Below, one piece after another: positions 15,628-62,523 of a stretch of 64,000 nt of DNA. The notes below the pieces were generated by a model, which had not been told where the DNA came from, made no database searches, and saw only the letters and a program-made list of their open reading frames with translations. The stretch lies in NCBI GenBank assembly GCA_050949165.1, contig JBMNFF010000001.1, forward strand, positions 1,622 to 65,621, given 5' to 3'. This DNA comes from Bacillota bacterium. Lineage in GTDB: Bacteria; Bacillota; Proteinivoracia; UBA4975. The first letter of the stretch is position 1, and each line of letters starts with the position of its first letter. Position numbers and translations under genes: made by a program.

Positions 15628-17581
15628 ATGAAGCAAAAAAAATTGAAGAACTACTCTCTCTTTTTCTACATCTCCGCCTCCGTATTTTTCATGGAGACTA
15701 TCCTCAGGATTGCCACGGTAGGCGGCAGTTTCTTTTCCCTGGGGGTGCTCATTTCCCTGCTCTTTTCCCTGGGAGCGGCAACCCTCTTCTTTATCATCTG
15801 CACATTTTTCCCGCCGGCCACCAATAGGCGCCTGGCTCTGGCCCTGCTCATCCTCATGGCCACCCTCTTCGGCTCCCAGCTGGTCTACTACGGCATCTTT
15901 ACCACCTTCTACACCGTGTACTCAGCCGGTCAGGCTGGCCAGGTCTTTCAATTCTGGCGGGAGGCGGTGGCTGGCATCGCTGCCAAGCCCATTCCCGTCG
16001 CCGCGCTCTTCCTGCCCGCCATCGCCCTGGGCCTCTTTGGCAAGAGGTTTTTCGCCTTCCCTAGCTTGCGCTGGTCGCGGCGGGGAATCCTGGCGGGGTT
16101 AATCCTGCTCTCCTACGGGTCCGGTCTGGCTGTGGTCCATGCCGGCGGGCGGGGACAAGCTTCGCCCTATGCACTCTATTATGATCGCGCTGTACCGGTG
16201 CAATCGGTGGCCAAGCTGGGGCTTCTCACCACCATGCGCCTGGATATCCAGCGCCAGCTGTCGGGCTGGACCCCCACCGTGGTTCTGCCGCCCCTTGAGG
16301 AAGCCCCGGTCTGGAGTCCTCCCGAACCCGAGGAAGAGCAGGTGGAGTACAATGTCCTGAACATCGACTTCGATTCCCTGCTCAGCGGCGAGGAGGATGA
16401 AACCCTGCGGGAAATGCACCGCTACTTTGCCGGCCTCAAACCCACGGAAAAGAACGAGTTCACCGGCAAGTACCAAGGCTATAACCTCATCCTCATCACC
16501 GCCGAGGGCTTTTCCCATCTGGCGGTGCGCCCCGATGTGACCCCCACTTTGTACAAGCTCTACCAGGAAGGGTATAAATTTACCAATTTCTACACACCCC
16601 TCTGGGGCGTCAGCACCTCCGACGGCGAGTACGTGGCCTGCACCGGCCTCATCCCCAAGACCGGGATCTGGAGCTTTAAGCGTTCCGCCCAGAACTCTCT
16701 GCCCCTGGTCATGGGCAATCAACTGAAGAAACTGGGCTACCAGACTGTGGCCTATCACAACCACTCGTACAAATATTACGGCCGGGACTCTCTCCCATCC
16801 CAATATGGGCTACGCGTACAAGGGCATCGGCAATGGCCTGGAGATCTCCAAGGCCTGGCCCCGCTCCGACCTGGAGATGATGGAGAAGTCCATCCCAGAA
16901 TACATCGGCGACCACCAGTTCCACGCCTATTACATGACCGTCAGCGGTCATCTCAACTACAATTTTTCCGGCAACAATATGGCCGCCAAGAACAGGAAGC
17001 ACGTCCAGGACCTGCCTTATTCCAAGACGGCCCAGGCCTACCTGGCAACCCAGATCGAATTTGACCGGGCCATGGAATACCTGCTGGGGGAATTGGAGAA
17101 GGCCGGCGTCGCCGACAGGACCCTGATCGCCATCAGCGCCGACCACTATCCCTACGGACTGGAGCGGTCGGCCATTGAAGAGCTGGCGGGGGAAAAGGTG
17201 GATAATAATTTCGACCTGTATCGCAACTCCTTCCTCCTCTGGACCAAGGGCATGGAGCCGGTGACCATCGACGAGCCCTGCTCCAGCCTGGATATAATCC
17301 CCACCCTTTCCAACCTCCTGGGCCTGGACTACGATTCTCGCCTCCTCATGGGCCGGGACATCCACTCCCAGGCCGATCCCCTGGTGATCTTTGCCGACGG
17401 CAGCTTCATCACCGACAAGGGCCGTTACGATGCCAATGCCGAAAGATTCGAACCCAATCCCGGGGTCAGCGTCGAGGAAGGCTATGTAGAATCCATCTGC
17501 AATATTGTGGCCTGCAAGACCTATTTCTCCGCCATGATCCTGGATACAGACTATTACGCCAAGGTCTTGCCCGATTGGTAA
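15628..17581 (+). pseudogene. LtaS-family sulfatase/phosphoglycerol transferase (LTA-synthase-like), interrupted by a +1 frameshift near 16789
   Basis: Five N-terminal TM helices plus an extracellular sulfatase domain. ORF 15628..17064 and ORF 16805..17581 join as ...YKYYGRD|LSHPNMGYAYKG... by skipping one base in the 'gactctctcc' run. Confidence 0.7.
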
Positions 17582-17596
17582 AGCATATCCGAAAAA

Positions 17597-17634
17597 GCAA
17601 GGGGTTGTCTCCGGCGGGAGACAACCCCTTTGGT
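17597..17634. terminator. Bidirectional terminator AAGGGGTTGTCTCC-GGCG-GGAGACAACCCCTT between convergent genes
   Basis: A perfect 14-bp stem flanked by A and T runs. Confidence 0.65.
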
Positions 17635-19506: not shown

Positions 19507-19508
19507 GG

Positions 19509-22232: not shown

Positions 22233-22242
22233 GGGAAGGCAA

Positions 22243-24702: not shown

Positions 24703-24752
24703 ATTGTAATAAATATCTTAGGGGACAGACTGCCAAGAAAAGGGGTGAGCAG

Positions 24753-25876: not shown

Positions 25877-26959
25877 TTGATGCTTAAAAAATTAACCGCA
25901 ATTGTTCTTGCAACAGTCCTGGTCTTTGCCCTGGCAGGTTGCCGGGGAGAGAGAACCGGGCAGGAAGAAGGCGGCGATTACAAGATCGGTATCATTACCG
26001 GGACGGTGTCCCAGGGTGAGGAAGAATTCCAGGCCGCCCAAAATATGGCCGCCAAATACGGCGACAAGATTGTAACTGCAACCTATCCGGATAATTTCGC
26101 CTCCGAAACCGAGACCGTCATCGCCCAGGTAGAGGCCTTGGCGGCCAACCCAGATGTCAAGGCCATCGTCTTTGTCCAGGCTGTCCCCGGCGCAGCCGCA
26201 GCCATCGACAAGGTGCGGGAAACCCGTCCCGACATGCTCTTCATCGCCGGCGTTGCCGCTGAGGACGGCTACCACGTCTGGCAGTTGATTGTAAACAAGC
26301 TGGCCCGGCGCCGCGCGGATTATGACCTGGCCAAGCCCCTGGTCTGCATCGGCCTGGCCGGCCTGGCCTTCGCAGCCACCTTCATCCCGGCGGTGGAGGA
26401 TATCCTCCTTTTCGTGCGGATTCCCGTGACCACCTACCTGGCCATTGCCGGCCTCTGCCTGTTCAACACCTGGCTGCTTCGCACCCGCCTGGGCCAGAAC
26501 ATGCGCACCGTCGGCCAGAGCCGCACCGTGGCCAATGCCGCAGGACTCAACGTCGACCGGATTCGCATCATCGCCATGATCCTCTCCACCGTCCTGGCCT
26601 GCTGGGGACAGCTCATCTATCTCCAGAACATCGGGACCTTCTCCACCTATGGCGCCCACACCCAGGTCGGCCAGTTCGCCATCGCCGCCCTCCTGGTGGG
26701 CGGGGCCTCGGTGCAAAGGGCCAATAACAAGCAGGCGGTGCTGGGGGTCATCCTCTTCCACACCTTGTTCATCGTCGCTCCCCAGGCCGGCAAGGAATTG
26801 TTCAACAACGCCCAGCTGGGCGAGTACTTCCGGGTCTTTGTGGCCTATGGTGTCATCGCCGTATCCCTGGCCATGCACGCATGGAAGACGGCAATTCGGC
26901 CCAAGCTGGGGGCAGCCGCGCCCATCAGTCAGGGTGGAGGCGGCAGTTGCTGCAGTTAA
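25877..26959 (+). pseudogene. Chimeric ORF: N-terminal ~140 aa of a DUF3798-type ABC-transporter lipoprotein fused in frame to the C-terminal half of a BMP/ribose-family ABC permease (deletion remnant)
   Basis: Lipobox LAGC plus DYKIGIITGTVSQGEEEF...IVTATYPDNF matches the DUF3798 N-terminus. From about residue 150 the sequence is permease (..RTRLGQNMRTVGQSRTVANAAGLNVDRIR.., TM helices). The rest of the binding protein, the ATPase and the first permease are absent. Confidence 0.6.
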
Positions 26960-26960
26960 A

Positions 26961-27103: not shown

Positions 27104-28755
27104 TTGAGGAGCATGAGTAAGCCGGTGCCGCCTCTCCCAAAGAACCTGGAATTAGTGCTTAAGGTTTCACAGCCGAAGAAGGCCAAGCCTTTCCTTACCC
27201 GGAAGACAAAAAGGTTAGTAGCAATCCTTGCCCCCCTGCTGGTAGTTTTCCTATTTTTCCAGCTGATTCTCTATTCCACCCGGGATATCCTCTACTATCC
27301 CAGAGTCGGCCCCTATCCCGGCGGTTCCATCTTGTACAAAGGAGATATCGCCGACAACCTCCCCAACGGCCAGGGGAAATTCTTCACCAGGGCGGGTCGA
27401 CTCATTGCCCAGGGTTCTTTTAAAGACGGCAAATTGCACGGCTCTGCCATTTTTTACGGCGAAGGCGGCCGGATCTATGAAGGTCAATGGCAGGACGGCA
27501 AGCGAAGCGGCCAGGGAACCTTGACCGTCCACGGCGTCAAGGTTTACGAAGGGCAGTGGGCCAACGACAAGCTCAACGGTTACGGGAGCCTGCACACCGT
27601 AAACAGCACTTATCAGGGAGAGTGGAAGGACAATAAGCGAGAAGGTCAAGGCGTCCTCGCCATGAGGGGGCAGAGGTATGAAGGTGAATTCAGCGATGAC
27701 CTGTTCCACGGCCAGGGAACCTTGTTCATCGATGAAAGAAAAGTGTACCAGGGGCAATGGCACAGGGGCCTGCCCCACGGAGAAGGGACCCTGTTTGCCC
27801 CAGTAACGGCGATATTATCTTCAGCGGCCATTGGGATAGTGGTTTTATCGAAGATGGGGACTTGTTGGGTCTGGACCCGGAAACATGGGAGTTCTTAAAT
27901 CTCCATATCTACCAACGGGGACTGGCTGCGGACTCGACTTGCCTGGACTTTATCAGAATTACCCAGGCCCTGTTGGGTGAAGGCCTGGATCAGGTCCTGC
28001 GGCTGAAGGCCGTGATTGACTCGGCCAGCGATGACCCCACCTTTCGCGAATTAATGTACCGCTTGATTGAATTGCCCCAGGAGCCCTATGAAGACCAGGT
28101 AATCAGGGAATGCATCCGCGCCCTGGAAAACGTGCCCTTGCCGATACTGCGGGACATCGTCGCCATAGGCAGCTCCTGTAAATTTTTTCCCGGCCTGATC
28201 GATGTCCCCGGTTACGTGGCCAATCCGAAATATGCCGGCGTCTACTATATAGACAAAAGATATCTGGTCGTCAGTTTGGGCAAGGGGTTGCCGGACATCG
28301 TCACCTTGCATGAAGTCGGCCATGAAGTGGACATTGCCCTGCTGTACTATAGCTCCTACAAACAGTTCTATTCAATCTGGCAGGCAGAGGCTGCCAGTGC
28401 CTTTACTCGCGATTACTATGTCGAGAACCCTGGCGAGTACTTCGCCCAGTTCTTTGCAAATTTCTATGCCGATGAGGAGGTCGTGGCGGCAGGTATTGAC
28501 TACGGATATTTCCAGTACCGGCGCAAAGAGTTAAAGGAAGTCGCCCCCCGCACCTATGAGTTTTTCGAGCAGTACGTCGACGGCTATCAGGGGCGGAATT
28601 ATGTCCACGTCCTCAAGCCCAGCACCCCCGATGCCGCCAGCGCCCACATATCCCTTAAATTACCCCAGCCAATCCCCCCGCGGGATTTTCTGGACAGAAT
28701 GGTCTACGGCCTTCGCAGTCTTTTCCGCCCCCCCCAAACCGGTGGAGCCCCCTGA
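27104..28755 (+). pseudogene. Membrane-anchored MORN-repeat protein with a C-terminal ATLF-like (anthrax-lethal-factor/PPEP-type) zinc-metalloprotease domain; -1 frameshift at a C4 run near 27797
   Basis: N-terminal TM helix. About seven MORN repeats (YEGQW.DGK..GQG). HEVGHEVD (HExxH) plus downstream YFAQFFANFY..E. ORFs 27104..27898 and 27757..28755 join as GEGTLFAP|SNGDIIFSGHWDSGF if one C is added to 'gccccag'. Confidence 0.65.
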
Positions 28756-32602: not shown

Positions 32603-33469
32603 ATGAAGAAAATTTTTTCGGCCATCTTGGTTTTGCTTATACTCATATGCTTCGCAGGCTGTGGAAGGAGTCCCGTTGAAATCCCAAGGGAGGATACAGA
32701 GGGAGAAAATCAATCTCCTGAACCTTCTCCAGAGCAAGTGTCCATAGCTGAGGAAGTCGTCATCGATGAACAGGGGATTCGCATCCAGATCGCCGCCCTT
32801 GAAGAAGCCAGGATGGGACCGGAACTGAAAGTGCAGATTGAGAATTCCTCAGAAGTGTCCGTAACTGTCCAGGTGAGAAAAACGTCAGTCAACGGATTTA
32901 TGATTGAACCGATCTTTTCCTGTGATGTGGCTCCGGGAAAGAAGGCTGTTGATGGCATATCCTTCTATGAAAGCGACATGGAAAGACACAATATTGAGGT
33001 CATCACCAACATTGAACTGGTCTTCCATGTCTTTAATGCCACCACCTGGGAAACTGTATTCAGATCCCAGCCGGTGCAAATTATTACAACAGCTGCAGAT
33101 AAGCACAGCCAAACCTATGATTCCGCAGGGGATGTATTAATCGAAAGCGCAGGAATAAAAATCGTCTTTCAGGGGTTGAGTGAAGATTATCTGGGTCCGG
33201 TGGCCAAGTTGTACATCGAGAACAATACCGACGAGTTTGTTTCCGTCCAAGCTAAAGATACTTCTGTAAATGGCTTTATGATCAGTCCCGTCTTTTCCTG
33301 TGAAATCACGCCGGGTAAAAAGGTCATTGACGGATTGTCATTCTACGAAGATGATATTGCTGAGCACGGCATCGACGCCATACAAGAAATCGAGCTGAGG
33401 TTCATCATCTTCAACCCCGATTCCTGGAAAACTATTTTAGAAACCGAATACATTACCATAACTCCATAA
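32603..33469 (+). CDS. Lipoprotein with two tandem ~100-aa beta-rich repeat domains (DUF4352-like)
   Basis: Lipobox ICFAGCG. Internal repeat ..VSVTVQVRKTSVNGFMIEPIFSCDVAPGKKAVDGISFYE.. and ..FVSVQAKDTSVNGFMISPVFSCEITPGKKVIDGLSFYE... Confidence 0.6.
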   Translation: MKKIFSAILVLLILICFAGCGRSPVEIPREDTEGENQSPEPSPEQVSIAEEVVIDEQGIRIQIAALEEARMGPELKVQIENSSEVSVTVQVRKTSVNGFMIEPIFSCDVAPGKKAVDGISFYESDMERHNIEVITNIELVFHVFNATTWETVFRSQPVQIITTAADKHSQTYDSAGDVLIESAGIKIVFQGLSEDYLGPVAKLYIENNTDEFVSVQAKDTSVNGFMISPVFSCEITPGKKVIDGLSFYEDDIAEHGIDAIQEIELRFIIFNPDSWKTILETEYITITP

Positions 33470-34625: not shown

Positions 34626-36843
34626 GTGAAAAAGTTAATCGTTTGGGGCCTTATATTTTCCTTCTTGTTCGGGATAACCGGTTGCTCGAAGTCAATAGAA
34701 TTGGAGTCAATCGTCCTTGACCCTGAGGAACTTGTCCTGGAGATCTCACAGTCGCGACAACTCAATATTTCTTTTGTTCCAGAAAGCGCCGAAGCCACAG
34801 ATATAACATGGTCGTCCAGCGACGGCAGTGTCGCCAGTGTAGATTGAGACCGGGATAGTAACAGCGGTTTCCCCGGGGACGGCAGTCATCACCGCAACCG
34901 GTCCCAATGGGGTTGCCGCTCACTGCACCGTTACGGTCCCGGTCATCCCGGTCACAGGCGTCTCTCTGGAAGGATCCCTTACCGTAACGACGAATACATC
35001 CCACCGGCTTTCTGCTACCCTGATCCCGGAGCACGCTTCCAACCCGGCGCTGTCCTGGACTTCCAGCGATACAGACGTGGCAATTGTCGAAGCCGATGGA
35101 ACTGTAGTCGCCCTCTCACCGGGAACCGTCATTATCACTGTTACAACTGAAGATGGCGGCCATACGGCAGAGTGTACTGTCGATGTAAAAAGCGCCGTTG
35201 AAAAGGTAGCTTTAGATAAACATACCCTTAACCTTGCAACCACCGAAACTGCACAGCTTTCTGCCGTTGTCAGTCCCCCGGACGCGCTTCAGGATGTCGT
35301 CTGGAGCTCCAGTGACGAAGGGGTAGCCACTGTGGACGATTCCGGACTTGTTTCCGCCAGGAACGAAGGCACTGCTGTTATTACCGTTACGACGCCTTGC
35401 GGACGTACCGACAGTTGCACCGTTACAGTGACCAGGGTAAAAGTCACCGGCGTCAAAATCAATCGCTCATCACTAAAACTCGCCACCGGGGATTTGGCGC
35501 AGTTATCCGCCACAGTGTCGCCGGCAAATGCCGCTGAAAAATCTGTATCCTGGCAGTCCAGCAATCCCGACGTTGCAACTGTAAACGCCTCTGGTAAATT
35601 GACAGCGGTCAGTCCCGGTCAATGCACTGTTACTGTCAAGACTGTGGACGGCGCCTACACCGCAACTTGCGCTGTTACAGTATTTGCTCCTACCGGTAAA
35701 CCCGGCAACTCCATCGGCAATCTCGTGAACCTGGGGACGTTCGCCTATCATGATGGCTGGATATATTTCTCGAATCCTTATGACGACCTCAAACTGTATA
35801 AAATCCGGGCCGACGGCGGCACCGCGTACAAATTAAGTAATGAATACGATACCAGTGGTATCAACATCGTTGATGGGTGGATATATTATCAGGCGGTTTC
35901 AGGCAGAAATCACAGGATTTTTAAAATCCGCCCTGATGGAAGCGGCAAGCAAATGCTTGTCACTCTGCCCCGGTCTGTCGATGCATACGGCAATGTAGGC
36001 GGACTAGGGAGAATGATGGTCATGGATGGTTGGATTTACATGGGAAATACAAATACAAGATATCGAATCGACGGCTCCGAAAAGCAGGAATGTCATGACC
36101 CGTTTCGGTCGGCCATCGTTGACGGATGGCTCTACACCTCATCGGAATCTGAAATTTACCGCATCCGAACCGATGGAGGCAAAAGGGAAATCTTATACCG
36201 AGGGAGAAAACATATTGTTTTCTTGCATATAATTGATGGATGGATGTATTTCGAGGATTGGAATAGTGTGAACCGTTTGAAGCTCGGCGGCACCCAGGTT
36301 GAAAAGCTGATAGAATTTGAAGGCAGATTTGAAAGTATGTTGGTAGATGAAGGCTGGATTTACATCTTGGAGCATACTGGCCCAGAAAAGATGAATATAC
36401 TGCGTATACGCACTGACGGAAGCACACCCCAAAAGTTAATTGCCGATGAAAATCTCCCCCCCATATCCTGGTTGCAGGTTGCCGACGGCTGGCTATATTA
36501 TCGGACCAGAGCCTACACCACCAGAGGGAGTAGCATAGGAGACTATATGCGCCTGCGCCTGACAAACAGCGATATCAAGGAGCCCTTTGCGGCCTACCCG
36601 GTCAGCGGCCAAATTGTCGACGCCAATAATCAACCTGTCTGGACTAGATATCTGGTAAAATATACCGGCAAAGACCTGGCAACCAATTCCAACAGGGATA
36701 TGTATGCCGAGAATGGAAATATCTATGTTCTCCTCTATCCCGGAACATACGTAATTCAAATTGAAGTGAGCTTTCTGGAATATTTTGAATATGAGTTTGT
36801 AGTCGACGGCCCGATTTCCGATTTGAGGATAGTATTGCCCTAG
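34626..36843 (+). pseudogene. Lipoprotein with four Big_2 Ig-like domains and a C-terminal DUF5050 (DGWIYY-repeat beta-propeller) domain; frameshift after the first Big_2 domain near 34845
   Basis: GTG start after G7. Lipobox ITGCS. ORFs 34626..34847 and 35077..36843 reconnect as ..SVASVD|ETGIVTAVSPGTAVITATGPNG.. if one T is removed from 'gattgag'. Confidence 0.7.
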
Positions 36844-44526: not shown

Positions 44527-46968
44527 ATGCATCTCAACTTAGAGCAGAAGCGACTGATCACCGCCACCCCCAGCGGCGCCACGCTGGTGCGCGGGGTTGC
44601 GGGCTCCGGAAAGACCACTGTTGCCGTGCATCGCGCGGGCTATCTCCTGAATAATTACTGCCTGGGCGAATCCGACCGGGTGCTTTTGGTTACCTATAAC
44701 AAAACCCTGGTCAAGTACCTGCGTCATCTCTATGAGAAGGTCAATGTCGAGGAAGGGGCATATGTCAACCTCTTTGGCCCCAGCCAATCTCAGGTGGACA
44801 TCACGACCATTGACAGCATTTTCTACCGCTATTATTGCAGCCTCTTCCCAAAATCCCAGCGCCGGGAACAGCTGTACGGCAATAACAACAAGAAGTACCA
44901 GGTCATCAGGAACTGTATAGCCGAGTTGGCCAAGAAGTTTGAGGATACCAATATCTTGGACCCCAAGAATGCCAGCTTCCTCTTGGATGAGATAGATTGG
45001 ATTCGCTCCTGCAATTATATGGAGTTATCTGAGTACCAGAATGTCGACCGCCTGGGTCGCCAGAGCTTCACCCAATCTGAAGGTCCCCAGCGGTTGCGCA
45101 AGAATTCCAGAACCCGCCATGCCATCTTCGAGCTGATGCTGGCCTACGATGCCCGTCTGGAGGAAGAGGGGCTCATCGACCCTAAGACCAGGGACATCCT
45201 GGTCTTAAAGAAGGCCCAGGAGCGACCTGAGCCGAAGTACACCCATATCATCGTCGATGAGAGCCAGGACCTGACCCGGGTGCAGCTGGAGTTTCTCAAG
45301 CTGTTGTACAAGCCGGGAGATTATTCCAGCCTCTTCTTCGTGGCGGATACCGCCCAGAGCATCTATCCCCATTCCTGGTTGGTGCGGGGGCGGAGCTTCA
45401 CCAGCTTGGGCCTGGACCTGACGGGCCGTGGCAATGTGCTGAGCAAGAACTACCGGACCACCACCCAGATAGCCCAGGCAGCCTACAGCCTCATTGAGGA
45501 GAACACAGAGATTGTCGAGGACGAGTACTATGTGGAGCCGGCTCTCCTGGACAAGCAGGGCCAGTATCCGGTGTACACGCACTTTACCTCCGAGCAGGAA
45601 GAAGCGGAATATGTTGCCCGGGAAATACACCAATTGCTGAATACATACCGCCCCGGCGAAATCATCGTCATCGCCCGGCTCAATCGGCAGCTGGAAATGG
45701 TCCAGCACGTACTGGAGGAACAGGGCCTGACCTGCCAGCTCTTGAAGGATCGGGAGGCCAGTTTCGACGAAGACTGCATCAAGCTGTTGACCATCCATTC
45801 CATCAAGGGCCTGGAGTTCAAGGTCGTGTTCATCATCGGTCTCAATGATTCCGTCATTCCCCTCATCGCCTACACCGAGATGGACGAAGGTATGCAGGAG
45901 ATTACCGAGCGCAAACTCTTATATGTGGGGATGACCCGGGCTGCTGAGCTCCTGTACATGTCTTCCTGCGCCCAGCCCTCCCGCTTCCTAAAGAGCATCT
46001 CCCCCCAGTACCTGCGCCTGTCCAGCGGCAGCCGCTTCAGCCATCTGTACAATATCCGCCCCGATGAATACCAGTTCGCCGAAAAGATCCTGGACATCTA
46101 CAGCAAGGAAGAGAAGGTCAGGCAGTGGCTGCTCCGGGAGTTGCAGGAAAAGTACAACTATCCCCGGGCCCTGTTGTCGGTGGAGTACAAGGTCAACAAC
46201 ATGTCCCGCACCGGCTCGGTGGACATCTGTATCCAGGTAAGCCGGGACGGCAGGCTGGTGCCCTATATCTTCTGCGAGGTCAAGGCCCCCGGCAGCGGCA
46301 CAAGCCAGGCCCTGGACCAGCTCAAGAGCTATATGAGCAATGCTAAGCATTGCCAGTACGGCCTGGCCACCGACGGCAGGGATATGGTCATCATCGATGC
46401 CGACTTTAATCCCGTTGACGACATCCCGGCCTTTAACCGGTTCATGTTGCCCAGCACCATGGAAAGATACAGCTTCCACTGCTTCACCAGCAAGCGCAAG
46501 TTCAACCTGGTCAGGGACAGCAACCTGTCCCAGGAAGTGATAGTAGAAACCGCTGCCGGCAGCGAGGCCTACAGTGGAGACAAGTTGAAGCTCATTCCCA
46601 CCTATGAGGGGATTGCCGCCGGCCAGCCCATCTACATGCAGGGCAGGAGCGAGGCCAGGTTCTACCTGCCCAGCGAATGGCTGCGGGGCAGGGAGAACTG
46701 CTACCTCCTCCAGGTCAAGGGAGACAGCATGATCGAGGCCGGCATAGATGATCAGGACTATGTCCTTATTCAGCACCAGTCCACCGCCCAAAACAGGGAT
46801 ATCGTGGCCGTGGCCATTGACGATGAGGCCACCCTCAAGCGGTTCGTGCGCATGGGGGATTCGGTGTTGCTGATGCCGGAAAACCCCAAGTATGAGCCCA
46901 TCCAGCTCTCGGACAACCAGGCCAGAATTGTGGGCGTGGCCATTGGGCTGCTGAAGAAAGAGAGTTAA
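44527..46968 (+). CDS. Three-domain protein: UvrD-like SF1 helicase, an HsdR-N/Mrr-like PD-(D/E)xK nuclease module, and a C-terminal LexA-like S24 self-cleaving peptidase domain
   Basis: GGAGGGG RBS plus the ATG giving MHLNLEQKRL. Helicase motifs: GVAGSGKTT (I), IIVDESQDLT (II), NYRTTTQIAQAAYSLI (IV), IHSIKGLEFKVVFIIGL (VI region). Nuclease module: SVDICIQ...IFCEVKAPG...QALDQLKSY. S24 domain: IAAG|QP (Ala-Gly cleavage site), VKGDSM (Ser) and ATLKRF (Lys). Confidence 0.8.
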   Translation: MHLNLEQKRLITATPSGATLVRGVAGSGKTTVAVHRAGYLLNNYCLGESDRVLLVTYNKTLVKYLRHLYEKVNVEEGAYVNLFGPSQSQVDITTIDSIFYRYYCSLFPKSQRREQLYGNNNKKYQVIRNCIAELAKKFEDTNILDPKNASFLLDEIDWIRSCNYMELSEYQNVDRLGRQSFTQSEGPQRLRKNSRTRHAIFELMLAYDARLEEEGLIDPKTRDILVLKKAQERPEPKYTHIIVDESQDLTRVQLEFLKLLYKPGDYSSLFFVADTAQSIYPHSWLVRGRSFTSLGLDLTGRGNVLSKNYRTTTQIAQAAYSLIEENTEIVEDEYYVEPALLDKQGQYPVYTHFTSEQEEAEYVAREIHQLLNTYRPGEIIVIARLNRQLEMVQHVLEEQGLTCQLLKDREASFDEDCIKLLTIHSIKGLEFKVVFIIGLNDSVIPLIAYTEMDEGMQEITERKLLYVGMTRAAELLYMSSCAQPSRFLKSISPQYLRLSSGSRFSHLYNIRPDEYQFAEKILDIYSKEEKVRQWLLRELQEKYNYPRALLSVEYKVNNMSRTGSVDICIQVSRDGRLVPYIFCEVKAPGSGTSQALDQLKSYMSNAKHCQYGLATDGRDMVIIDADFNPVDDIPAFNRFMLPSTMERYSFHCFTSKRKFNLVRDSNLSQEVIVETAAGSEAYSGDKLKLIPTYEGIAAGQPIYMQGRSEARFYLPSEWLRGRENCYLLQVKGDSMIEAGIDDQDYVLIQHQSTAQNRDIVAVAIDDEATLKRFVRMGDSVLLMPENPKYEPIQLSDNQARIVGVAIGLLKKES

Positions 46969-49162: not shown

Positions 49163-49879
49163 GTGATATCTGTCGCCACCTGGAACATGGATTACTGGAA
49201 GCGCAAGAAGGAGCAGCGCCAAGCGGCCTGGACCTATTTAACTGAAGAAATTCGCCCCGACATTGCCTTACTCCAAGAGTGCAAGCCGCCTCCTGTCATG
49301 AATAGGGAGTATAATATTATTTACCATGAAATAGGTGGTGCTAGAAATTGGGGGTCGGCGGTGCTGGCCCGCAGTTATACCATAAAGGAGGTCGAATTTG
49401 AAAACAGCCACCCCGGTTGTGTGGTGGCTGCAGAAATAGAAATACTAGGTATCACTTTGACAGCAATCAGCGTATACGGGATGTTGTGCAAGCATAATTA
49501 CGCAACTACGACGATGCACAGAATCCTTTCCGACTTGACTCCTTTAATCCATGGCCAGCGGAATAGACGCACTTTCATAATGGGTGGCGATTACAACGTA
49601 AGCACTCAGTGGGACGAACGCTATAAGCACCGCGATCCTTCTCACCAGTTGGTTTTCGACAGGATTGAGGATTTCAGATTGGTGAACTGCACTCTTCAAT
49701 ACTTCGGAAAGCACGTTCAGACCAACCACCATGCTAGGAGCAATTATCCATGGCAGAATGACTATCTGCATGCTTCAAAAAAGCTCGCGGCCAAGTTGGT
49801 GTCATGCGAGGTATTTGGTGAGGAGGAGATAAGAGAGTTTAGTGATCATTTGCCCGTATTAGCTCATTTTGCTTTCTAG
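49163..49879 (+). CDS. Endonuclease/exonuclease/phosphatase (EEP) family protein, copy 1
   Basis: GTG start after AAGGGAGGGAAG. ATWNMDYW, ..IALLQE.. and a C-terminal SDHLPV hallmark. About 85% identical to the 59678..60394 product. Confidence 0.75.
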   Translation: MISVATWNMDYWKRKKEQRQAAWTYLTEEIRPDIALLQECKPPPVMNREYNIIYHEIGGARNWGSAVLARSYTIKEVEFENSHPGCVVAAEIEILGITLTAISVYGMLCKHNYATTTMHRILSDLTPLIHGQRNRRTFIMGGDYNVSTQWDERYKHRDPSHQLVFDRIEDFRLVNCTLQYFGKHVQTNHHARSNYPWQNDYLHASKKLAAKLVSCEVFGEEEIREFSDHLPVLAHFAF

Positions 49880-51395: not shown

Positions 51396-51485
51396 ATTGG
51401 ACTTGACCGTAGCGAAGATACGCTCGGTATTGACTTATGATTAAATAAATGTTACTGTATATTCAATTTTACTTAGGAAGAAAAA

Positions 51486-52097
51486 TTGGAGGAACAAATG
51501 AATATTAAGAAGTATTTTTCTAATAACACTGCAATTTTAACTATTATTTGTATTAATCTGATTGTCTTTATCGCAATAAACGCTTTTCCCAATCTTCGTG
51601 AAATTCTTTTATTAAATGCTGATCCCAAAATAATGTTAGAAAAACCATGGACTTTATTTACGGTCTTTTTTTCTCATGAGCTGCTGATACATATTCTATT
51701 AAACATGGTTTTGGTTTTTATCTTTGGTACTGAGCTCTATAAAGAAACAAATGCAAAGGTAGTTTATCTTGTTTATATCCTTTGTGGATTTATTGGTAGT
51801 TTATCAATCTTTATATATGCTCCTTTAATCGGATATAATGGAGGATTAATCGCAGGAGCTTCTGCAGCAGCGTTTGGGATTGTTGCAACTTATGTTATAC
51901 TGCAGCCCAATACTATGATATTAGGATCAAAGGCAAAATACTGGTTGATAGCATTATTTATTGTGAATGCTATTTTAACCATAAGAGATCCCTTGGTTTC
52001 TGTTGGCGGCCCGGCTCATGCGGTAGGTATTATAGTAGGATTGCTTTTAGGCTTGCTGCTGAAGAAAAAGCAAGTCGCAAAGAGCGGCAATGAGTGA
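51486..52097 (+). CDS. Rhomboid-family intramembrane serine protease
   Basis: Six TM helices, a GASAAAFG (GxSG) catalytic Ser and a downstream AHAVGIIVG His. The region has very low GC. Confidence 0.8.
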   Translation: MEEQMNIKKYFSNNTAILTIICINLIVFIAINAFPNLREILLLNADPKIMLEKPWTLFTVFFSHELLIHILLNMVLVFIFGTELYKETNAKVVYLVYILCGFIGSLSIFIYAPLIGYNGGLIAGASAAAFGIVATYVILQPNTMILGSKAKYWLIALFIVNAILTIRDPLVSVGGPAHAVGIIVGLLLGLLLKKKQVAKSGNE

Positions 52098-52132
52098 CTT
52101 TCACATAATACAAGAGATGTAGAGGATAAAGC

Positions 52133-52876
52133 ATGAAAAATCATAGTACTAAAAGAACAACGATTTTGGCAGTACTGCTATCGGTATTCTTATTTCAACA
52201 AGCCGCCAGCAAAATTGGTAAATATGTTGCTAATATTTTTGATTACAGCTTAATAGATAGTTATAATGTTTTTGCCTGGATTTCTGTGCACCACATTGTA
52301 CAGACACTTTTAGCTTTGGTGCCCATTATCATACTATCAAAAATTTATAACATCGATTTTGGTTTCCGTTTAGGAGATAAAAAAACAGGTTTAAAACTTA
52401 TTAGGATATACACAATTGCGATGTTAGTATATATAACTTTTACATCTGTTATAACCTATTTTGGCAATCAAATTGTTCAATATGATTATCCGTTAACTAT
52501 GACAAACATTTTAGGCTCATTGGGATTTCAACTTTTCTTGACGGGCCCTTCTGAAGAAATTCTATTCCGTGCTCTGCCGATTTCAATATTCGCTTGCGTT
52601 ATATCGAGTGAAAAAGGCATAAAAACAGGGAAACTGCACATTTCATGGCCCAATATTATTGCTGCGATATTTTTTGCTCTCGCACATATCAAATGGACCA
52701 TAAGCCCATTTTCCGTAAGCTTTGAATATATGCAACTGCTATTTTCATTAGTTTTAGGAATAATGTATGGAATCGTATATGAGAAAAGTAAAAGTGTAAT
52801 CTATCCGATGATAATGCATAGTTTGACCAACGTGGCAGTCGTTGGGGCGGGATACATATTATCTATTCTCAAGTAA
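52133..52876 (+). CDS. CPBP-family intramembrane metalloprotease (CAAX protease/Abi, bacteriocin-immunity type)
   Basis: EEILFRALP (EExxxR), FALAHI and HSLTNV motifs. Eight TM helices. Confidence 0.8.
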   Translation: MKNHSTKRTTILAVLLSVFLFQQAASKIGKYVANIFDYSLIDSYNVFAWISVHHIVQTLLALVPIIILSKIYNIDFGFRLGDKKTGLKLIRIYTIAMLVYITFTSVITYFGNQIVQYDYPLTMTNILGSLGFQLFLTGPSEEILFRALPISIFACVISSEKGIKTGKLHISWPNIIAAIFFALAHIKWTISPFSVSFEYMQLLFSLVLGIMYGIVYEKSKSVIYPMIMHSLTNVAVVGAGYILSILK

Positions 52877-53100
52877 ATGCTTTTATTCGAATCACTAATG
52901 GTATCCGTCAGTCGCACAAAATTATAAAAGCCGCTATTTTAGCGGCTATTTTTATATAACGGAACTTATTGCTTAGTCGACGGTTTGAAAGAAACCTAAC
53001 CATAGTATATGTTCCCGCTTACTGATAGTGAAAAAGTGTCTCGGACATTTCCGAAAACGGGGGAGGGCAGGGGACATCTACACAATTCTATTAAAGTAAA

Positions 53101-53329
53101 TCAATCCCCCGAAACACGTACTTCTGCACCGGATTCACGTAGAATTTTTGTCCAATACTCAATAAATTCCTTGCCCGAAGGGATGTTATCATCGGTTTTG
53201 AGACCAAGTACTCTGCTTTTGCCCACTCCGAGATTATGATAGGGCATGATCTCTGCATAACGATAGCTGCCCATATGTTTTTTTAAAAAATCCCTGAGTG
53301 TTTGTTGTAGACTAGTTTTACCGGGAATT
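53101..53329 (-). pseudogene. C-terminal ~75-aa fragment of a glycyl-radical-enzyme activating (radical SAM, PflA-like) protein, truncated by the IS21 insertion
   Basis: ...IPGKTSLQQTLRDFLKKH....MPYHNLGVGKSRVLG...PSGKEFIEYWTKILRESGAEVRV matches the PflA/activase C-terminus. The upstream part of the ORF runs into IS21 terminal-repeat DNA. Confidence 0.6.
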
Positions 53330-53463
53330 GCATGATAGGTTCCCCGGAAATTGCAAAGTAAAATTCCCTGTTTTTGCAGATAGAGAAGGCCATTGCAGCA
53401 GCCCCATAGAAACCTACCCTTGTAACGCCAATCACGAGGGAGGTAATTAGGAGGATGCTGACA

Positions 53464-54984
53464 ATGGCGCAAATTAATTGTATCAGAGAAATGTACTTTG
53501 AGAAAGGCATGAATTATGCCAGCATAGCAAGAGCCACAGGACATGATGTAAAGACAGTTAAGAAATACATCAACATGAAAGACTTTACTCAACCGCTTCC
53601 CAAACCAGCTAAAAAACGCGGGTCTAAGTTGGACAAGTATAAAGAGGAGATAGATAGCTGGTTGGAAGCAGATAAGCAGGCCCGCAAGAAACAGCGCCAC
53701 ACTGCGCGCAGAGTCTTCGATCGGCTGGCTGGAATTTATGGTCCTGAATTCAACTGTTCTTACCGGCTGGTCGCTGCGTATGTAGCAGAACGTAAGAAGG
53801 CGCTATACAGTCAGGAAACCCAATTTTTTATGCCTCTGGAACATATCCCGGGAGAGGCGCAAGTAGACTTTGGCGAAGCAGATTTTTATGAGGGCAATGA
53901 ACTCTGCAACGGCTATTACTTGAATCTCTCTTTCCCCAATAGCAATGGCGGTTACCTGCAGCTGTTCAAAGGGCAGAACATGCAATGCCTGGCCGAAGGG
54001 CTGATGAACATCTTTGCCCACTTGGGCGGCGTACCAACCAGGCTCTGGTTCGATAACCTTTCTCCAGCAGTAAAGAAAATCCTGAAAAACCATGGGCGGG
54101 AACTGACAGATTCGTTCCTGCGTTTCAAGAATCACTACGGATTTATTGCTGCGTTTTGCAACCCCGAGAGCGGTCATGAAAAAGGCAATGTGGAGAACAA
54201 AGTGGGCTACCATCGGCGCAATCTGTTGGTGCCCATCCCCCGGATAGATGACCTAAGAGCATTTAATCGCCAACTGCTTGAGAAATGCGATCGAGATATG
54301 CAAAGGCCACATTACAAGAAGGCGCTGCTGATTCAAGAGCTGTTCTTTGAGGACCGAAAAGCGCTGCTGCCACTGCCCGCTGTCCCCTATGATGAATCCG
54401 AGATTAAGAAGGTGCGCACTAACAGTTACGCTAAGTTCACATTAAATGATGGGAAGCACACTTACTCCACCGCTCCCCGTTACGCCAACAGCGAAGTATT
54501 CGTAAGGTTGACCGCTCATGACGTCATTGTTCTGGACGAGAGCTACAGGGAGGCAATTAGGCACCCCCGCCTCTACGGTAAAGAGAACAAGGAATCCATG
54601 GACTGGCTGCCATATTTGGCCCAACTGGCCCGCCGACCTGCGGCCCTAAAATACACCGGTATCTATCCCATGCTCCCTGAACCTATACAGGATTTCCTGG
54701 ACAACTGCGACTACTCGAGCAAGAAGGAAGCCTTGACAGTCTTGGCCAAGCTCAGCGAGGCAAGTGGGTTTAACAAGGCTACTGAAGCCTTCTTGACGGC
54801 CTTGGAACACGGTGTAAGCGATGCCGACAGCATCATAGCTATGTTTAGTCGACTTAACTGCGAAGTCCTAGACCTGGATCCCCTAATCCTGCCGGCCAGT
54901 GTTCCCGACATGCCCCAAGTACAAGCTAACGTAGCTGAATATGACCGCTTGTTCTTGAGTGAAGGTGGTATTCATGAAAGCTGA
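53464..54984 (+). CDS. istA: IS21-family transposase IstA
   Basis: N-terminal HTH (MAQINCIREMYFEKGMNYASIARATGHDVKTVKKY) plus the DDE core. Confidence 0.92.
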   Translation: MAQINCIREMYFEKGMNYASIARATGHDVKTVKKYINMKDFTQPLPKPAKKRGSKLDKYKEEIDSWLEADKQARKKQRHTARRVFDRLAGIYGPEFNCSYRLVAAYVAERKKALYSQETQFFMPLEHIPGEAQVDFGEADFYEGNELCNGYYLNLSFPNSNGGYLQLFKGQNMQCLAEGLMNIFAHLGGVPTRLWFDNLSPAVKKILKNHGRELTDSFLRFKNHYGFIAAFCNPESGHEKGNVENKVGYHRRNLLVPIPRIDDLRAFNRQLLEKCDRDMQRPHYKKALLIQELFFEDRKALLPLPAVPYDESEIKKVRTNSYAKFTLNDGKHTYSTAPRYANSEVFVRLTAHDVIVLDESYREAIRHPRLYGKENKESMDWLPYLAQLARRPAALKYTGIYPMLPEPIQDFLDNCDYSSKKEALTVLAKLSEASGFNKATEAFLTALEHGVSDADSIIAMFSRLNCEVLDLDPLILPASVPDMPQVQANVAEYDRLFLSEGGIHES

Positions 54985-55702
54985 AATTGCTGAGTGCTGC
55001 CGCCGCCTTCGCTTAAGCAAGAACATAGCAGAAATCTCCGACCAAGTTGAAGCTGACAGCTACCAGGAGTACCTGCTTAAGGTCCTGAAGCAAGAGGTTG
55101 CATACAGGGAAACAACCCGCAAGAACCGTCTGGTAAAACAAGCTGGTTTCTACAACTTGAAAACCTTTGATGGTTACAGCTTTGACGAAATTCGGTTGCC
55201 AACAGAGCTCTCAATTGCCGATTTAAAAGAAGTGAACTTCGTCAGGCAACAGAAGAACCTCATCTTCTACGGCAATGTAGGCACCGGCAAGACCCACCTC
55301 GCCACGGCCATAGGGATTGAAGCATGCAATAGAGGTCTATCTGTTCGGTTCTTCCGCACAGCAGCCCTGGTCAACCAACTCAGCGATGCACAGAAAAAAG
55401 GCGAGCTCAATAAACTTCTGAAACAATTAGCAAAGGCTGATCTGTTAATCTGCGATGAATGGGGATATGTCCCCCTGGACCGAGACGGTTCCAAGCTCTT
55501 GTTCCAGGTAATTTCAGACCGCTACGAGCAAAGGAGTGTGATCATCACTACCAATCTTGAATTTAGCAAGTGGGTAAACATTTTCTATGATGAGCAGATG
55601 ACGGCTGCCATGATCGACCGCTTAGTTCACCACAGCTACCTGCTATTATTCGATGGACAGAGTTACCGGATTAGGAAATCATTGATGAAAGGCTACGCAT
55701 AA
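54959..55702 (+). CDS. istB: IS21-family helper ATPase IstB
   Basis: NLIFYGNVGTGKTHLA (Walker A) and DEWGY (Walker B). Overlaps istA. Confidence 0.92.
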   Translation: MKVVFMKAEIAECCRRLRLSKNIAEISDQVEADSYQEYLLKVLKQEVAYRETTRKNRLVKQAGFYNLKTFDGYSFDEIRLPTELSIADLKEVNFVRQQKNLIFYGNVGTGKTHLATAIGIEACNRGLSVRFFRTAALVNQLSDAQKKGELNKLLKQLAKADLLICDEWGYVPLDRDGSKLLFQVISDRYEQRSVIITTNLEFSKWVNIFYDEQMTAAMIDRLVHHSYLLLFDGQSYRIRKSLMKGYA

Positions 55703-55776
55703 ATTCCCTGGCGGGGTTGTTGCAAGGGAAGTTTGCAAACACAGGGAAAAAGAGCTTGCAAAAAACAACTATTTGA

Positions 55777-56613
55777 TTGTCCTGGAGGTAATCATAGTAC
55801 TCTCCCTCAGTTTCAAATTCCATGGGGCTGTGAAACTGCTTATAGTAGGAGAGGAAATAGGTTAACAGTATGTCCCTATATTTTTGCTCTTTACTTAGGG
55901 CTGTAAATTGCTCCTCGACAAACTGAGTTAAATCTATGTTGGTTACGGTAGGCTGTTTCCCTTCGACCTGGGCGATAATTTCTTTACCCAGTTTGTGAAA
56001 GGTCATGGCGTCAATATCTTTGCCAGTCTCTTTCTTGATCCGCTCAGACATTTCTGCAGCCGAGGCATTGGTGAAGGACAAAACCAGCAGTTCATTGGGC
56101 TGGTAGGAATATCTATCTAACAGATATTTGACCTTGCCGACTATGGTCGTGGTCTTGCCACTACCGGCGCCGGCTATGACGAGATTGTTTATTTCATCCT
56201 TAATTATGCATTCCCTCTGTTGGTTATCCAGTGACCTTCCTTCGATATTAGCGAAGAGGGCGTCATAACGCTTTTTTTCCCTGGATCGCGTTGTATTTTT
56301 TGCAGATATCATTCAGGGTGGCGCATGTTTGTTTAAACTGGTCAATCTTGAGTTTGTTTCCCGGGGGTAGTTTGCGATACCGCCTGGTTTTTCTGATTCT
56401 TTCCTTCAACTCATGGACCGAGGATTTCCAGTCTGCTATGTTTTGTTGATCCATATACCTGGAATAGTCCATAATGCGGCCCAGTGCCTCGAGGGCATCT
56501 CGGCATTCCATGGCAATCTCATCCCAGGAACGAATTAGGTCGAGCTTTCGCTGTTTTCTTTTTTGTTTATAGGTGCTGTACCAGGAGGCAATTCTTCTGA
56601 ACAATATACCCAC
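55777..56613 (-). pseudogene. N-terminal part of a HelD/UvrD-like SF1 helicase gene, frameshifted at an A7 run (~56285) and truncated by the right end of IS21
   Basis: ORF 56263..56613 (N-terminal coiled region) joins ORF 55671..56312 (..NNLVIAGAGSGKTTTIVGKVKYLL.. Walker A/Ia) if A7 is read as A6. The coding sequence stops at the IS21 boundary. Confidence 0.6.
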
Positions 56614-58933: not shown

Positions 58934-59139
58934 CGAGAATGGGGCCAGGTCCGACCAAGGCTTTTACTCAGATGAAGGAGGGTTGCTATAGGGAGGCCTG
59001 GTCGTATTAACCCTCGAGCTTATGCGGAATGTGTACCTAAGGTTTTGGGTGGCAAGGGGCTTATGCAACAGGGATTCAAATGTGTCCTAGAGTTAGCAAT
59101 GCCATGGCTACTAGAGGTATAGCAGCAGAGGCTGTGTAA

Positions 59140-59183
59140 TGCGGAATGGACGCCAGAGGGGGGTACTTACCTCCATGGCGTCC
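59140..59183. terminator. Strong palindrome AATGGACGCCA-N19-TGGCGTCCATT (possible bidirectional terminator)
   Basis: An 11-bp perfect stem, about 200 nt downstream of the GmrSD gene and at the stop of the minus-strand ORF. Confidence 0.4.
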
Positions 59184-59589: not shown

Positions 59590-59677
59590 TTATTTATGAA
59601 GCCTTTTGCTACAGGACACCTTGCGTCCAGTGTTTAAGCAACTTCAAAAGAATTATTGCAGGATGGGAGGGGAGTAT

Positions 59678-60394
59678 GTGATATCCATTGCCACCTGGAA
59701 CATGGATTATTGGAAACGCAACAAGGAGCAGCGACAAGCTGCCTGGGACTATTTAACTGATGAAATTCGCCCGGACATTGCCCTACTCCAGGAGTGTATG
59801 CCGCCTTCTGTCATTAGCAAAGGATATAATATTATTTACCGGGAAATTGGTGGTACTAGAAATTGGGGGTCTGCGGTGTTGGCTCGCGGTTATCCCATAA
59901 AGGAAATAGATTTTGAAAACAGCCATCCTGGTTGTGTGGTAGCTACAGAAGTGGAAGTACAAGGCGTCACCTTAACGGCAATCAGCGTTTACGGAATGCT
60001 GTGTAGGTATAATTACGCGACCACGACGATGCACAGAATCCTTTCCGACTTGACTCCGTTAATACATGGCCAGAGGAGAAGCCGCACTTTCATAATGGGC
60101 GGGGATTATAATGTTAGCCCTCAATGGGATGAGCGCTATAAACACCGCGACCCCTCCCACCAGTTGGTTTTTGACCGGATCGATGATTTCAGACTGGTGA
60201 ACTGTACCCTTCAATACTTCGGAAAACTTGTCCAGACCAACCACCATTCTAGAAGCAAATTCCCTTGGCAGAATGACTTTCTGCATGCATCAAAAAAACT
60301 TGCGGCAAAGCTGGTGTCATGCAGGGTATTTAATGAAGAACATGTAAGGGAGTTCAGTGACCACGATCCAGTAGTGGCTTATTTTGAGGATTAA
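59678..60394 (+). CDS. EEP (endonuclease/exonuclease/phosphatase) family protein, copy 2; immediately upstream of a UvrD-like helicase gene
   Basis: GTG start after GGGAGGGGAG, chosen by homology to copy 1. ATWNMDYW...ALLQE...SDHDPV. Confidence 0.7.
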   Translation: MISIATWNMDYWKRNKEQRQAAWDYLTDEIRPDIALLQECMPPSVISKGYNIIYREIGGTRNWGSAVLARGYPIKEIDFENSHPGCVVATEVEVQGVTLTAISVYGMLCRYNYATTTMHRILSDLTPLIHGQRRSRTFIMGGDYNVSPQWDERYKHRDPSHQLVFDRIDDFRLVNCTLQYFGKLVQTNHHSRSKFPWQNDFLHASKKLAAKLVSCRVFNEEHVREFSDHDPVVAYFED

Positions 60395-60561
60395 TAATAA
60401 AATGGGGCGGAGTTCGAAGACAAAAAAACGGCCGCTTGCTGTTAGGCCGCACCTGGGATGAAATGCCTGCGCTGAAAACCGGCAATTAGGATACCGGGCG
60501 GGCAGGTTTGTCACGGGAGCGTGCTATTGTATATATGTCAGCACAAAGGGAGGTAGATTGT

Positions 60562-62523
60562 ATGTCCCATCTGAAGATATGGCAGCAAGCTCAGAAAAAG
60601 GTGGAAGAAACCGTTGCCAGAGTGAAGTCATTCCTTGACAGCTTTTCCCGGGAGCGGGAAGAGTTGCAGCAGCGGATTGCCAAATATCGTGAGGACGTAA
60701 AGAATGCGGACAGCAAGGACAGGCAGTTCATGTTGTCCGACCTTTTATGCTGGAAGAAGAGGCCCGCCTGGGCAGACGCATTGAGGATATGAGCACCGGC
60801 CTGTTCAGCCCCTATTTCAGCAAAGTCGTTTCCGATGAGGCTATTTACATATCCAAGTACTTTTCGGACCCAGATCATAACCTGGTCAAATTTACATCGC
60901 CCGTCGCCGTCCTCAGATACAAAGACGTGGAACAAGTTGGCTATGTCAACGGCATAGCCCACAAAATCAAGGAGAAGCAGATTGTAGACATCGAGGAGGG
61001 TACCCTGAGGCGTTTGGAGCACGCCGAGGCCGACACCGTTTTTGTTTACGATTGCAACAGGGTAACCTTTCTCCACAAGCGGCCTGGGGAGCTGCCGGTG
61101 AGCAAGGCCAGTTTGGCCGCCCCGCAGCCGGAGAGCGCTGAGGCGGCCGAGCCCAAGAAATATGTGCTGGGCGAGATTATCGCGAAAATGCGGGAAGAGC
61201 AGGACCGCATCATGCGGGCGCCCTACCAGGGGGTGACCCTGGTCAAGGGGGCAGCAGGTTCCGGCAAGACCAACATTGCCTTCCACCGCATTGTTTACCT
61301 GCTCAGCGAGCATCCCAAGGAGTTCCGGCAACAGGCCATCGCAGTATTTTGTTACAACGTGGCTTTGAAGAAGTATTTGAGCAACATGCTCATCGAGCTG
61401 AATATCCCGCGGGTTCAGGTCTTCAGCATCGACGAGTGGCTTTACTCCATCCTCCGGAAGGTCACCAACATTAGCTGGCTAAATTACGATGAAGATACCT
61501 GGACCAAGATTGTCAAGACGCGCAAAGAAGTCCTGCCGATCTTGGACGTTTTTTACGCTGAGTACAAACCCCAGCTCCTCAAGACGATAACCGTGGAAGA
61601 GGTTGGCGAGGACAGCCTTCTGCGCATCGACGGGCTATGGATTCTCAATTTGCTCTATACCTACCGGCCCTTCTTAGAGCATATCAGCTGGCATGATTCC
61701 GGCGGCCCGGTCCGCTATGAGCCGGGGGAAAGGGTGGACCATTCAGATCAGTTTCTCCTTGCCTGGCTAATTCAGAAGCTGGCTCAAGACAGGAATCTCA
61801 ATGTCTTTGGCTATTACGACCACGTGGTGGTGGATGAGGTCCAGGACCTGATGCCCGTCCAGCTTGCCCTGCTGGACACCCTACACAACAATTCCATGAC
61901 CCTGGTGGGGGATGTGAGTCAAAGGATTTTCGCCCTGGGCGTGGACAGCTGGGACCAGCTCCCCGTTACCATCAATAGCACCTATGAACTTACTATGTGC
62001 CATCGGTCCACCCTGCAGACCCATCCTCTTTGCCAACGAACTGCTGGCAGACAAAGGGGACAATATATATTCAACAAAGGTGGGGAAACAAGGGGAAAAG
62101 CCGTGTCTCTTCAGGGCTGCAAACCGTACCGATGCCCTGGACAAGGTTGTTCAGTATGTAAAGGAAATCAAGGGGCGGGAACCCCTGGCCTCGGTGGCGG
62201 TCCTCAACTTCCGTAACAGGGATTTGAATTGGATTAATGACAACCTCTGGAAAGCGGGCATTGACAGCTACATTGCCACCAAAGGCGACTGGGAGTTTTC
62301 GCCCCGGGTGGCGGTTACCACGTATCACCAGGTCAAGGGTTTGGAATTTGACTACATCTTCATCCTGGGGCTTAACGATTACCAGCAGTTAAAAATCTCC
62401 AACATGGACAAGGTTATCTACACTGCGGTGACCCGGGCCCAGAAGCGGGTGTACATTGCTTATTGGCGGCACCTCCCGGATATCCTCAAAAAAGCGGACC
62501 CGGAGCTATATGTCCGGGTCTGA
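60562..62523 (+). pseudogene. UvrD/HelD-like SF1 helicase with a ~230-aa N-terminal extension; two frameshifts (T4 run ~60745; C3 run ~62010)
   Basis: AAGGGAGG RBS plus the ATG giving MSHLKIWQQ. Frames rejoin as ..FMLSDLL|(F)MLEEEARL.. and ..CHRSTLQT|ILFANELL.. (motif IV NYRST..IL.AAN). Motifs KGAAGSGKT, VVVDEVQDL and YHQVKGLEFDYIFILGL. Same subfamily as the 44527 helicase. Confidence 0.65.

Follow-up and report, generated by a model that had tools for sequence, protein, structure and literature searches.

The closest described counterparts of the interrupted genes considered here are slipped-strand contingency loci, frameshift pseudogenes of accessory islands and the indel errors of long-read sequencing. 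The genes lie in a 64,000-nucleotide stretch of DNA from a Bacillota bacterium (GTDB lineage Bacteria; Bacillota; Proteinivoracia; UBA4975; GenBank assembly GCA_050949165.1, contig JBMNFF010000001.1, positions 1,622 to 65,621 of the forward strand), which in its full length is called the window. Seven frame breaks are considered: site 1 in an LtaS-like gene, site 2 in a gene with MORN repeats and an ATLF metalloprotease domain (MORN-ATLF), site 3 in a gene for a Big_2/DUF5050 surface protein, site 4 in a DUF917 gene, site 5 in the remnant of a helicase-IV-type gene, and sites 6 and 7 in a second helicase gene (helicase 2). We consider it likely that these breaks have two origins, with five of them being inherited mutations and the two at sites 1 and 4, which are private to the window, being artefacts of a consensus made from mixed strains.

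Contingency loci typically carry tracts of at least seven repeat units that lie inside the reading frame or immediately before it. The window resembles them in that genes for surface or secreted proteins coexist in on and off frameshift states in the population and in the presence of one poly-C tract that varies in length, but the tracts here are of 2–4 nt, the alleles are discrete and look inherited, and the variable tract (C8/C9) sits at the 3′ end. The likeness to frameshift pseudogenes in accessory and defence islands extends to short indels in well-preserved genes, to lesions shared by descent and to one gene that has also been hit by an insertion sequence (IS), and nothing here is unusual for that class. 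Long-read indel errors, of which homopolymer indels are the classical form, are known from analyses of protein truncation (IDEEL-type; PMC9262707), and the window shares with them two private single-base insertions that truncate proteins, at about two per 63 kb, in what is probably a long-read metagenome-assembled genome (MAG). The difference is that sites 1 and 4 appear not to be homopolymer miscalls but allele merges at multi-nucleotide polymorphisms.

For the comparison, contigs from JGI, ENA, NCBI and Logan (loci on them are cited by L numbers) were retrieved by exact-protein look-up with intact neighbouring genes. Those of the same species are 99.3–99.99% identical to the window. A 1.1-Mb JGI contig (L001, L011, L021 and L031), here called the sister contig, is 99.96–99.99% identical, and its structure diverges after position ~52,991 of the window. 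Proteins of the window are also identical to NCBI records MGI6364162–MGI6364195, which lie on a contig of 1,138,505 bp, and this makes a long-contig MAG its probable source. Statements on all assemblies at sites 5–7 refer to those retrieved, which amount to 10–12 loci per site. Gapped patterns covering all alleles, together with conserved flanks, found no match when scanned against metagenome and genome contig collections, which apparently do not hold the species.

Three-frame translation gives a clean switch of coding frame at all seven sites, and a Pfam search of the open reading frames (ORFs) of the window finds single domains split across adjacent ORFs at the broken genes, with N- and C-terminal UvrD domains in separate ORFs; the breaks that the first-pass annotation had reported are thus all present in the sequence. 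Its statement that repair yields continuous proteins also stands, as each repaired product matches intact relatives over the full length, with 650 amino acids (aa) for the LtaS-like protein, 546 for MORN-ATLF, 739 for Big_2/DUF5050, 361 for DUF917 and 654 for helicase 2, and ~838 aa for helicase IV. In the comparison with orthologues that it had proposed, the fragments align collinearly with intact full-length homologues across the break. The lesions themselves had been described as single-base shifts, mostly at short homopolymers, and this description has to be revised: site 2 is a gain of 2 bp, site 3 a loss of 2 bp and site 6 a deletion of 4 bp, and just three of the sites (2, 5 and 7) fall within homopolymers, of which the one at site 5 alone is longer than 4. 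The position given for the DUF917 lesion (~40733) is that of the stop codon, with the lesion itself at 40715, and the supposed slip at T4 in helicase 2 (~60745) is in fact the 4-bp deletion. As to the choice left between artefact and decay, the evidence supports decay or polymorphism at five of the sites and an artefact at sites 1 and 4 only, through a mechanism other than the one proposed. The coordinates are collected in Table 1.

Table 1. Coordinates of the broken genes and associated features in the window
Feature	Position	Strand	Lesion or remark
LtaS-like gene, Sulfatase domain (site 1)	15628–17581	+	One extra base, GGGA[C]TCTCTCCC, at 16788–16790; private to the window
Chimeric ORF	25877–26959	+	DUF3798 N-terminus fused to C-terminal half of BPD_transp_2 permease; junction ~26266
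MORN-repeat/ATLF metalloprotease gene (site 2)	27113–28755	+	2-bp insertion, C2 to C4, 27798–27801
Poly-C tract, C8	28728–28735	+	Near 3′ end of ATLF gene
Big_2/DUF5050 surface-protein gene (site 3)	34626–36843	+	GA lost from GAGA at 34843/34844 (−2 bp)
DUF917 (S-Me-THD) gene (site 4)	39887–40973	+	One extra G at 40715, GTA[G]ACAATC; private to the window
IS21-type element, istA and istB	53455–55702	+	Right end adjoins shortened helicase-IV gene
Helicase-IV-type UvrD remnant (site 5)	55768–56613	−	A7 frameshift (T7 on + strand, 56272–56278); cut by IS21 at ~55768
Helicase 2, HelD/helicase-IV-like (sites 6 and 7)	60562–62523	+	4-bp deletion at 60742/60743; extra C in 62020–62022 (C2 to C3)

Frameshifts shared with other assemblies

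Sites 2, 3, 5, 6 and 7 are shared with other assemblies, as is expected of inherited frameshift pseudogenes. Each is reproduced exactly in between four and at least 19 other contigs, and the fragment proteins that result are on record from NCBI, JGI, ENA and Logan. Because the identical lesion occurs in many independent assemblies, these five sites are best read as genuine decay or polymorphism. The five frameshifts are predicted to inactivate their genes; internal starts could still yield truncated products at the broken genes. Under this interpretation sites 2 and 3, both of which affect secreted or surface proteins, would segregate in the population beside intact alleles, and sites 5, 6 and 7 would belong to two helicase genes in decay within an accessory region that is rich in IS and resembles a defence island.

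At site 2 the MORN repeats and the ATLF domain fall in separate ORFs (Pfam), with a change from TTTGCCAG to TTTGCCCCAG. The broken form TTTGCCCCAG occurs in the window, in the sister contig (L011/L031), in a contig with a SPAdes NODE name (L032), and in L033 and L039, two Logan contigs being among these carriers. The intact form TTTGCCAG occurs in five loci (L034, L035, L037, L038 and L040), all of which encode 546 aa, and NCBI, JGI and Logan records include the 261-aa and 296-aa fragments of the broken gene. By this distribution, site 2 is evidently a real allele that segregates in the species. The poly-C tract further downstream in the same gene is C9 in L004/L036 and L039 and C8 elsewhere, and C9 extends the product from 546 to 600 aa; such 600-aa products (P0141 and P0143) are on record. 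No other long simple repeat differs between samples, and the variation of this tract alters the C-terminus without switching the gene off.

At site 3 a Big_2 domain lies in the first ORF and a further Big_2 domain with DUF5050 in the second (Pfam). The change from GTAGAGATTGAG to GTAGATTGAG is found in the window, in the sister contig (L001/L031), in another JGI sample (L004/L036) and in the SPAdes contig L032. Nine loci carry the intact form GTAGAGATTGAG, and a second, shorter intact allele, GTAGATGAG, is present in L006 and L038. The length of the broken allele falls between those of the two intact alleles, and an origin by merging of the two was therefore considered. It was rejected because the exact 73-aa Big_2 product is also encoded on at least 13 contigs, and the same allele occurs in the SPAdes contig and in a separate JGI sample. 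Site 3, like site 2, is by all appearances a real segregating allele. A candidate second frameshift at 34847–35077 was likewise ruled out, as the frame is open from 34842 onward. Sites 2 and 3 lie 7 kb apart, and all four combinations of broken and intact alleles are found among the assemblies (L031–L040), which implies that strains have recombined, that mutation has recurred or that some metagenome contigs are chimeric.

The helicase-IV remnant contains a UvrD-helicase domain (Pfam). Intact homologues are single proteins of 825–840 aa that cover 97–99% of the repaired fusion, and the 113-aa N-terminal ORF, which is found on 72 contigs, aligns with their N-termini. The T7 run that marks the frameshift is identical in 12 loci. 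In L071 the helicase body is of full length (738 aa) and is still split from the 113-aa ORF; its homology to the window stops at window position ~55768. Comparison of L041, L046, L047 and L071 gives three states of the gene, all with the A7 frameshift: a form of 213 aa, truncated by IS21, in the window, L061 and L064, a form of 253 aa that joins sequence 88% similar to the 3′ end of a UvrD-S24 gene (46836–46962), and the full-length body. The mutation at site 5 is thus evidently real and in all assemblies retrieved, and the IS21 cut is best placed after it. No intact copy in this lineage was seen among the 12 loci retrieved. The gene pair of the IS21 element (506 aa and IstB_IS21) is also found in L027, L028 and L061.

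Helicase 2 carries two lesions. Relative to an intact orthologue (L051, 654 aa), site 6 changes GACCTGGCTTTTATG to GACCTTTTATG and site 7 changes CAGACCATCC to CAGACCCATCC, and both are identical in 10 other loci. The 489-aa middle fragment between the two sites is encoded on at least 19 contigs (JGI and Logan runs). The repaired gene has exactly 654 codons and aligns with that of L051 at 93% nucleotide identity over 100% of its length; all listed intact members of the 654-aa cluster are only ~93% identical, and no intact copy from this lineage was seen among them. Compared with the intact orthologue, helicase 2 shows a ratio of nonsynonymous to synonymous substitution (dN/dS) of 0.13 and, apart from the two frameshifts, no stops, which indicates that it is probably a young pseudogene.

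Downstream of helicase 2 a 1623-aa ORF begins (window 63029–64000). In related loci (L061, 10039–19226) this ORF is followed by a large helicase with the domains DEAD/ResIII, YjiV_N, Helicase_C and MZB, and in other organisms this pair is found after the intact orthologue of helicase 2. This arrangement suggests that helicase 2 and the downstream pair form a conserved module, possibly with a role in defence. For the first 323 aa of the 1623-aa ORF, PADLOC reported only one weak match, to PbeA.

Private insertions at strain polymorphisms

Over ~63 kb, the window has just two indels that set it apart from every other assembly, those of sites 1 and 4. At site 1 the Sulfatase domain of the LtaS-like gene is split between two ORFs (2–112 and 162–300; Pfam), and the window reads GGGACTCTCTCCC where 14 other contigs carry an intact 650-aa gene with the allele GGGATCTCTCCC or GGGACTTCTCCC. 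Exact look-up of the 478-aa N-terminal fragment in a collection of 15 billion proteins found no match, which marks the lesion as private. When one C is deleted, the protein becomes 100% identical to that of L011 or L012. Between positions 529 and 17097 site 1 is the sole indel that separates the window from ten other assemblies, and the Pfam domains in the first 15 kb are complete.

At site 4 the S-Me-THD_C domain of the DUF917 gene is split (6–100 and 120–164; Pfam). The window allele is GTAGACAATC; at least five other contigs with GTAACAATC or GTTGAGATC encode an intact 361-aa protein. The 282-aa fragment was not found in the protein collection, and removal of the extra G restores a protein 100% identical to that of L001. 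Isolated alleles of a divergent haplotype occur in the window at 40129, 40135 and 40684, beside the G at 40715, among ~35 neighbouring sites that keep the other haplotype. Such a mosaic is in keeping with a consensus called column by column from mixed reads; it does not fit tracts of recombination.

Both insertions fall inside clusters of multi-nucleotide polymorphism, which cover 0.16% and 1.7% of the compared sequence, so that the joint chance of the two falling there is ~3e-5 (the product of the two fractions). In both cases the window is a hybrid of the two intact alleles, reading CTC against TC or CT at site 1 and AGACA against AACA or TGAG at site 4. Among the seven breaks, only these two combine a private lesion with a site of strain difference at which both alleles are joined. 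Assembly or polishing of a strain mixture would yield such sequences: at each site the window equals the allele of the sister contig plus the base that is inserted when the other allele is aligned to it, with the compensating deletion and substitutions not adopted. The C at site 1 and the G at site 4 are therefore, on this pattern, probably consensus artefacts, and we infer a polishing mechanism behind them. The sister contig has an analogous private lesion of its own in the Big_2/DUF5050 gene, with GC where strains carry C or G (L001 position 6527, window 36211).

Two further observations were made on private sequence. The same gene of L001 also has a change from A4 to A5 together with an insert of ~1 kb (6693–7689 and 7703; window 36375 and 36386), and the insert showed no similarity to anything else retrieved. 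In the window, three substitutions within 10 bp (53333, 53340 and 53342), upstream of the IS21 transposase gene, are found in no other assembly; L027, L028 and L061 read A, A and T at these positions. They may reflect variation between IS copies or mixing in the consensus.

Homopolymer runs of at least 3 nt make up about 20% of the window. Other assemblies cover 75 runs of at least 6 nt, and at none of these is the length in the window private. A change of one base within a run fits no site but site 7 (C2 to C3) and, as an inference, site 5 (A7). Because the private lesions sit on polymorphisms and the homopolymer lengths are concordant, strain mixing is favoured as the source of sites 1 and 4 over raw-read chemistry.

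Alternative readings

Several points weigh against an origin of the breaks in five inherited mutations and two consensus artefacts. The artefact status of sites 1 and 4 was deduced from the sequence pattern, and a very recent real insertion in the window strain could account for either site. The JGI and Logan contigs were assumed to be mutually independent, with short reads indicated only by SPAdes- or MEGAHIT-style contig names, and the universality of sites 5–7 covers only the 10–12 loci retrieved for each.

The alternative that survives best takes all seven lesions as true mutations, with sites 1 and 4 as very recent insertions in the window strain. In its favour, five lesions are demonstrably real, further genuine frameshift polymorphisms occur in the population (one of them at 32622 in other strains), and the window strain also carries the real deletion at 26266 that is described below. 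We nevertheless regard this alternative as unlikely. The private insertions coincide with rare multi-nucleotide polymorphisms and hold bases of both alleles, and alleles of the other haplotype are scattered in the window around site 4. The repaired proteins at both sites are 100% identical to those of the sister contig, which has the same type of lesion at a single-nucleotide polymorphism (SNP), and the LtaS-like gene is intact in 14 of 14 other contigs.

It seems improbable that the on and off alleles of genes for exposed proteins are maintained as strain-level switching, for example under pressure from phages or predators, and not by neutral decay. If true, such switching would cover MORN-ATLF, Big_2/DUF5050, the signal peptide of a 288-aa protein (at 32603) and the C8/C9 tract.

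Functional recoding, through programmed frameshifting or transcriptional slippage at A7, or phase variation of the surface-protein genes, is a very improbable explanation. The A7 run is kept in 12 of 12 loci and the downstream helicase body is open in L071, but the helicase-IV frame needs a shift of +1, so that a slip of −1 at A7 would end in the wrong frame, and the sequence shows no evident +1 signal of a known kind. Members of the helicase-IV family are ordinary single ORFs, and most copies here have been cut down further, to 213 or 253 aa. For MORN-ATLF and Big_2/DUF5050, on and off alleles do co-circulate in all four combinations, and C8/C9 varies between samples; against a switch, C2/C4 and (GA)2/(GA)1 fall far short of the contingency tracts that are known, each assembly holds one discrete allele, and the C8/C9 tract changes only the C-terminus. 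The slipped-strand phase variation that the first-pass annotation had raised finds no support at any of the seven sites, where the tracts are too short or invariant.

It is hardly credible that all seven breaks are homopolymer-indel errors in the sequencing or assembly of noisy long reads. The window probably comes from a long-contig MAG and sites 2, 5 and 7 do lie in C or A runs, but five lesions are reproduced base for base in independent assemblies (k-mer and short-read ones included), three events are of 2–4 bp, the two private ones lie outside homopolymers, and no private length occurs at the 75 long runs.

Regional context and significance

Two lesions in the region had not been listed by the first-pass annotation, namely the truncation of the helicase-IV gene by IS21 and a deletion that joins a DUF3798 gene to a permease gene. 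The chimeric ORF that results from the latter matches DUF3798 over positions 1–100 of 271 and BPD_transp_2 over positions 135–260 of 269 (Pfam). L012–L014 diverge from the window at 26266, and L032, L037, L038 and L039 keep separate permease genes of 355 and 491 aa. Because other strains keep the full operon, the chimera is best explained as a deletion of ~4 kb at 26266, one that is evidently shared by the window strain and the sister contig. Near the same position the sister contig has an additional deletion of ~270 bp and a duplication of ~230 bp, and many short-read contigs end there.

Other irregular frames in the window were also compared. At 32603–32640 eight other assemblies carry a variant that is 1 bp longer (GGCCCAACTTGG, against GGCCATCTTGG in the window, where the frame is intact). 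It sits in the signal-peptide-like N-terminus (MKKIFSAILVLL) of the 288-aa protein, and the shifted frame leads gene callers to pick a downstream start (280 or 243 aa). At 12648–15503 two long ORFs on the + strand (544 and 402 aa in other assemblies) share one frame and are separated by a single stop at 14289–14291, an arrangement that every assembly shares; the opposite strand carries a 698-aa ORF for which Pfam gives no match. The overlapping ORF pairs at 2403–4083 and 4613–5987 were considered as possible frameshifts and rejected, as the Pfam domains are complete and there is no indel relative to ten assemblies.

The fixed lesions (sites 5–7) lie in an accessory region of lower GC content. 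Its genes comprise a UvrD-HSDR_N-S24 helicase, IS256, a Rhomboid/Rce1 cassette, IS21, GmrSD, two paralogues of the endonuclease/exonuclease/phosphatase family (EEP) and the start of the 1623-aa gene. PADLOC returned only generic GajB-like and GmrSD-like matches in this region and assigned no specific defence system. The Rhomboid and Rce1-like (CAAX protease) pair at 51409–53298 is 99.6–100% identical to copies in unrelated contexts, among them a 23-Mb NCBI record and phage-like contigs that also carry portal and ClpP genes. In the window IS256 and IS21 flank the pair, which apparently behaves as mobile cargo. The two EEP paralogues (49163–49879 and 59665–60331) have ~84% nucleotide identity, and many short-read contigs end inside the second copy.

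Inherited frameshift pseudogenes and strain-mixture artefacts are both already known, and no new biology is implied by their occurrence here. The main value of the analysis lies in quality control and annotation. As a practical rule, comparison with assemblies of the same species separates inherited frameshifts from assembly noise, and the strain-mixture artefacts in this sequence appear at multi-nucleotide polymorphisms and not at homopolymers. For the organism itself, the LtaS-like and DUF917 genes should probably be annotated as intact. The two helicase genes, together with MORN-ATLF and Big_2/DUF5050 in the window strain, would be annotated as genuine pseudogenes or split genes.

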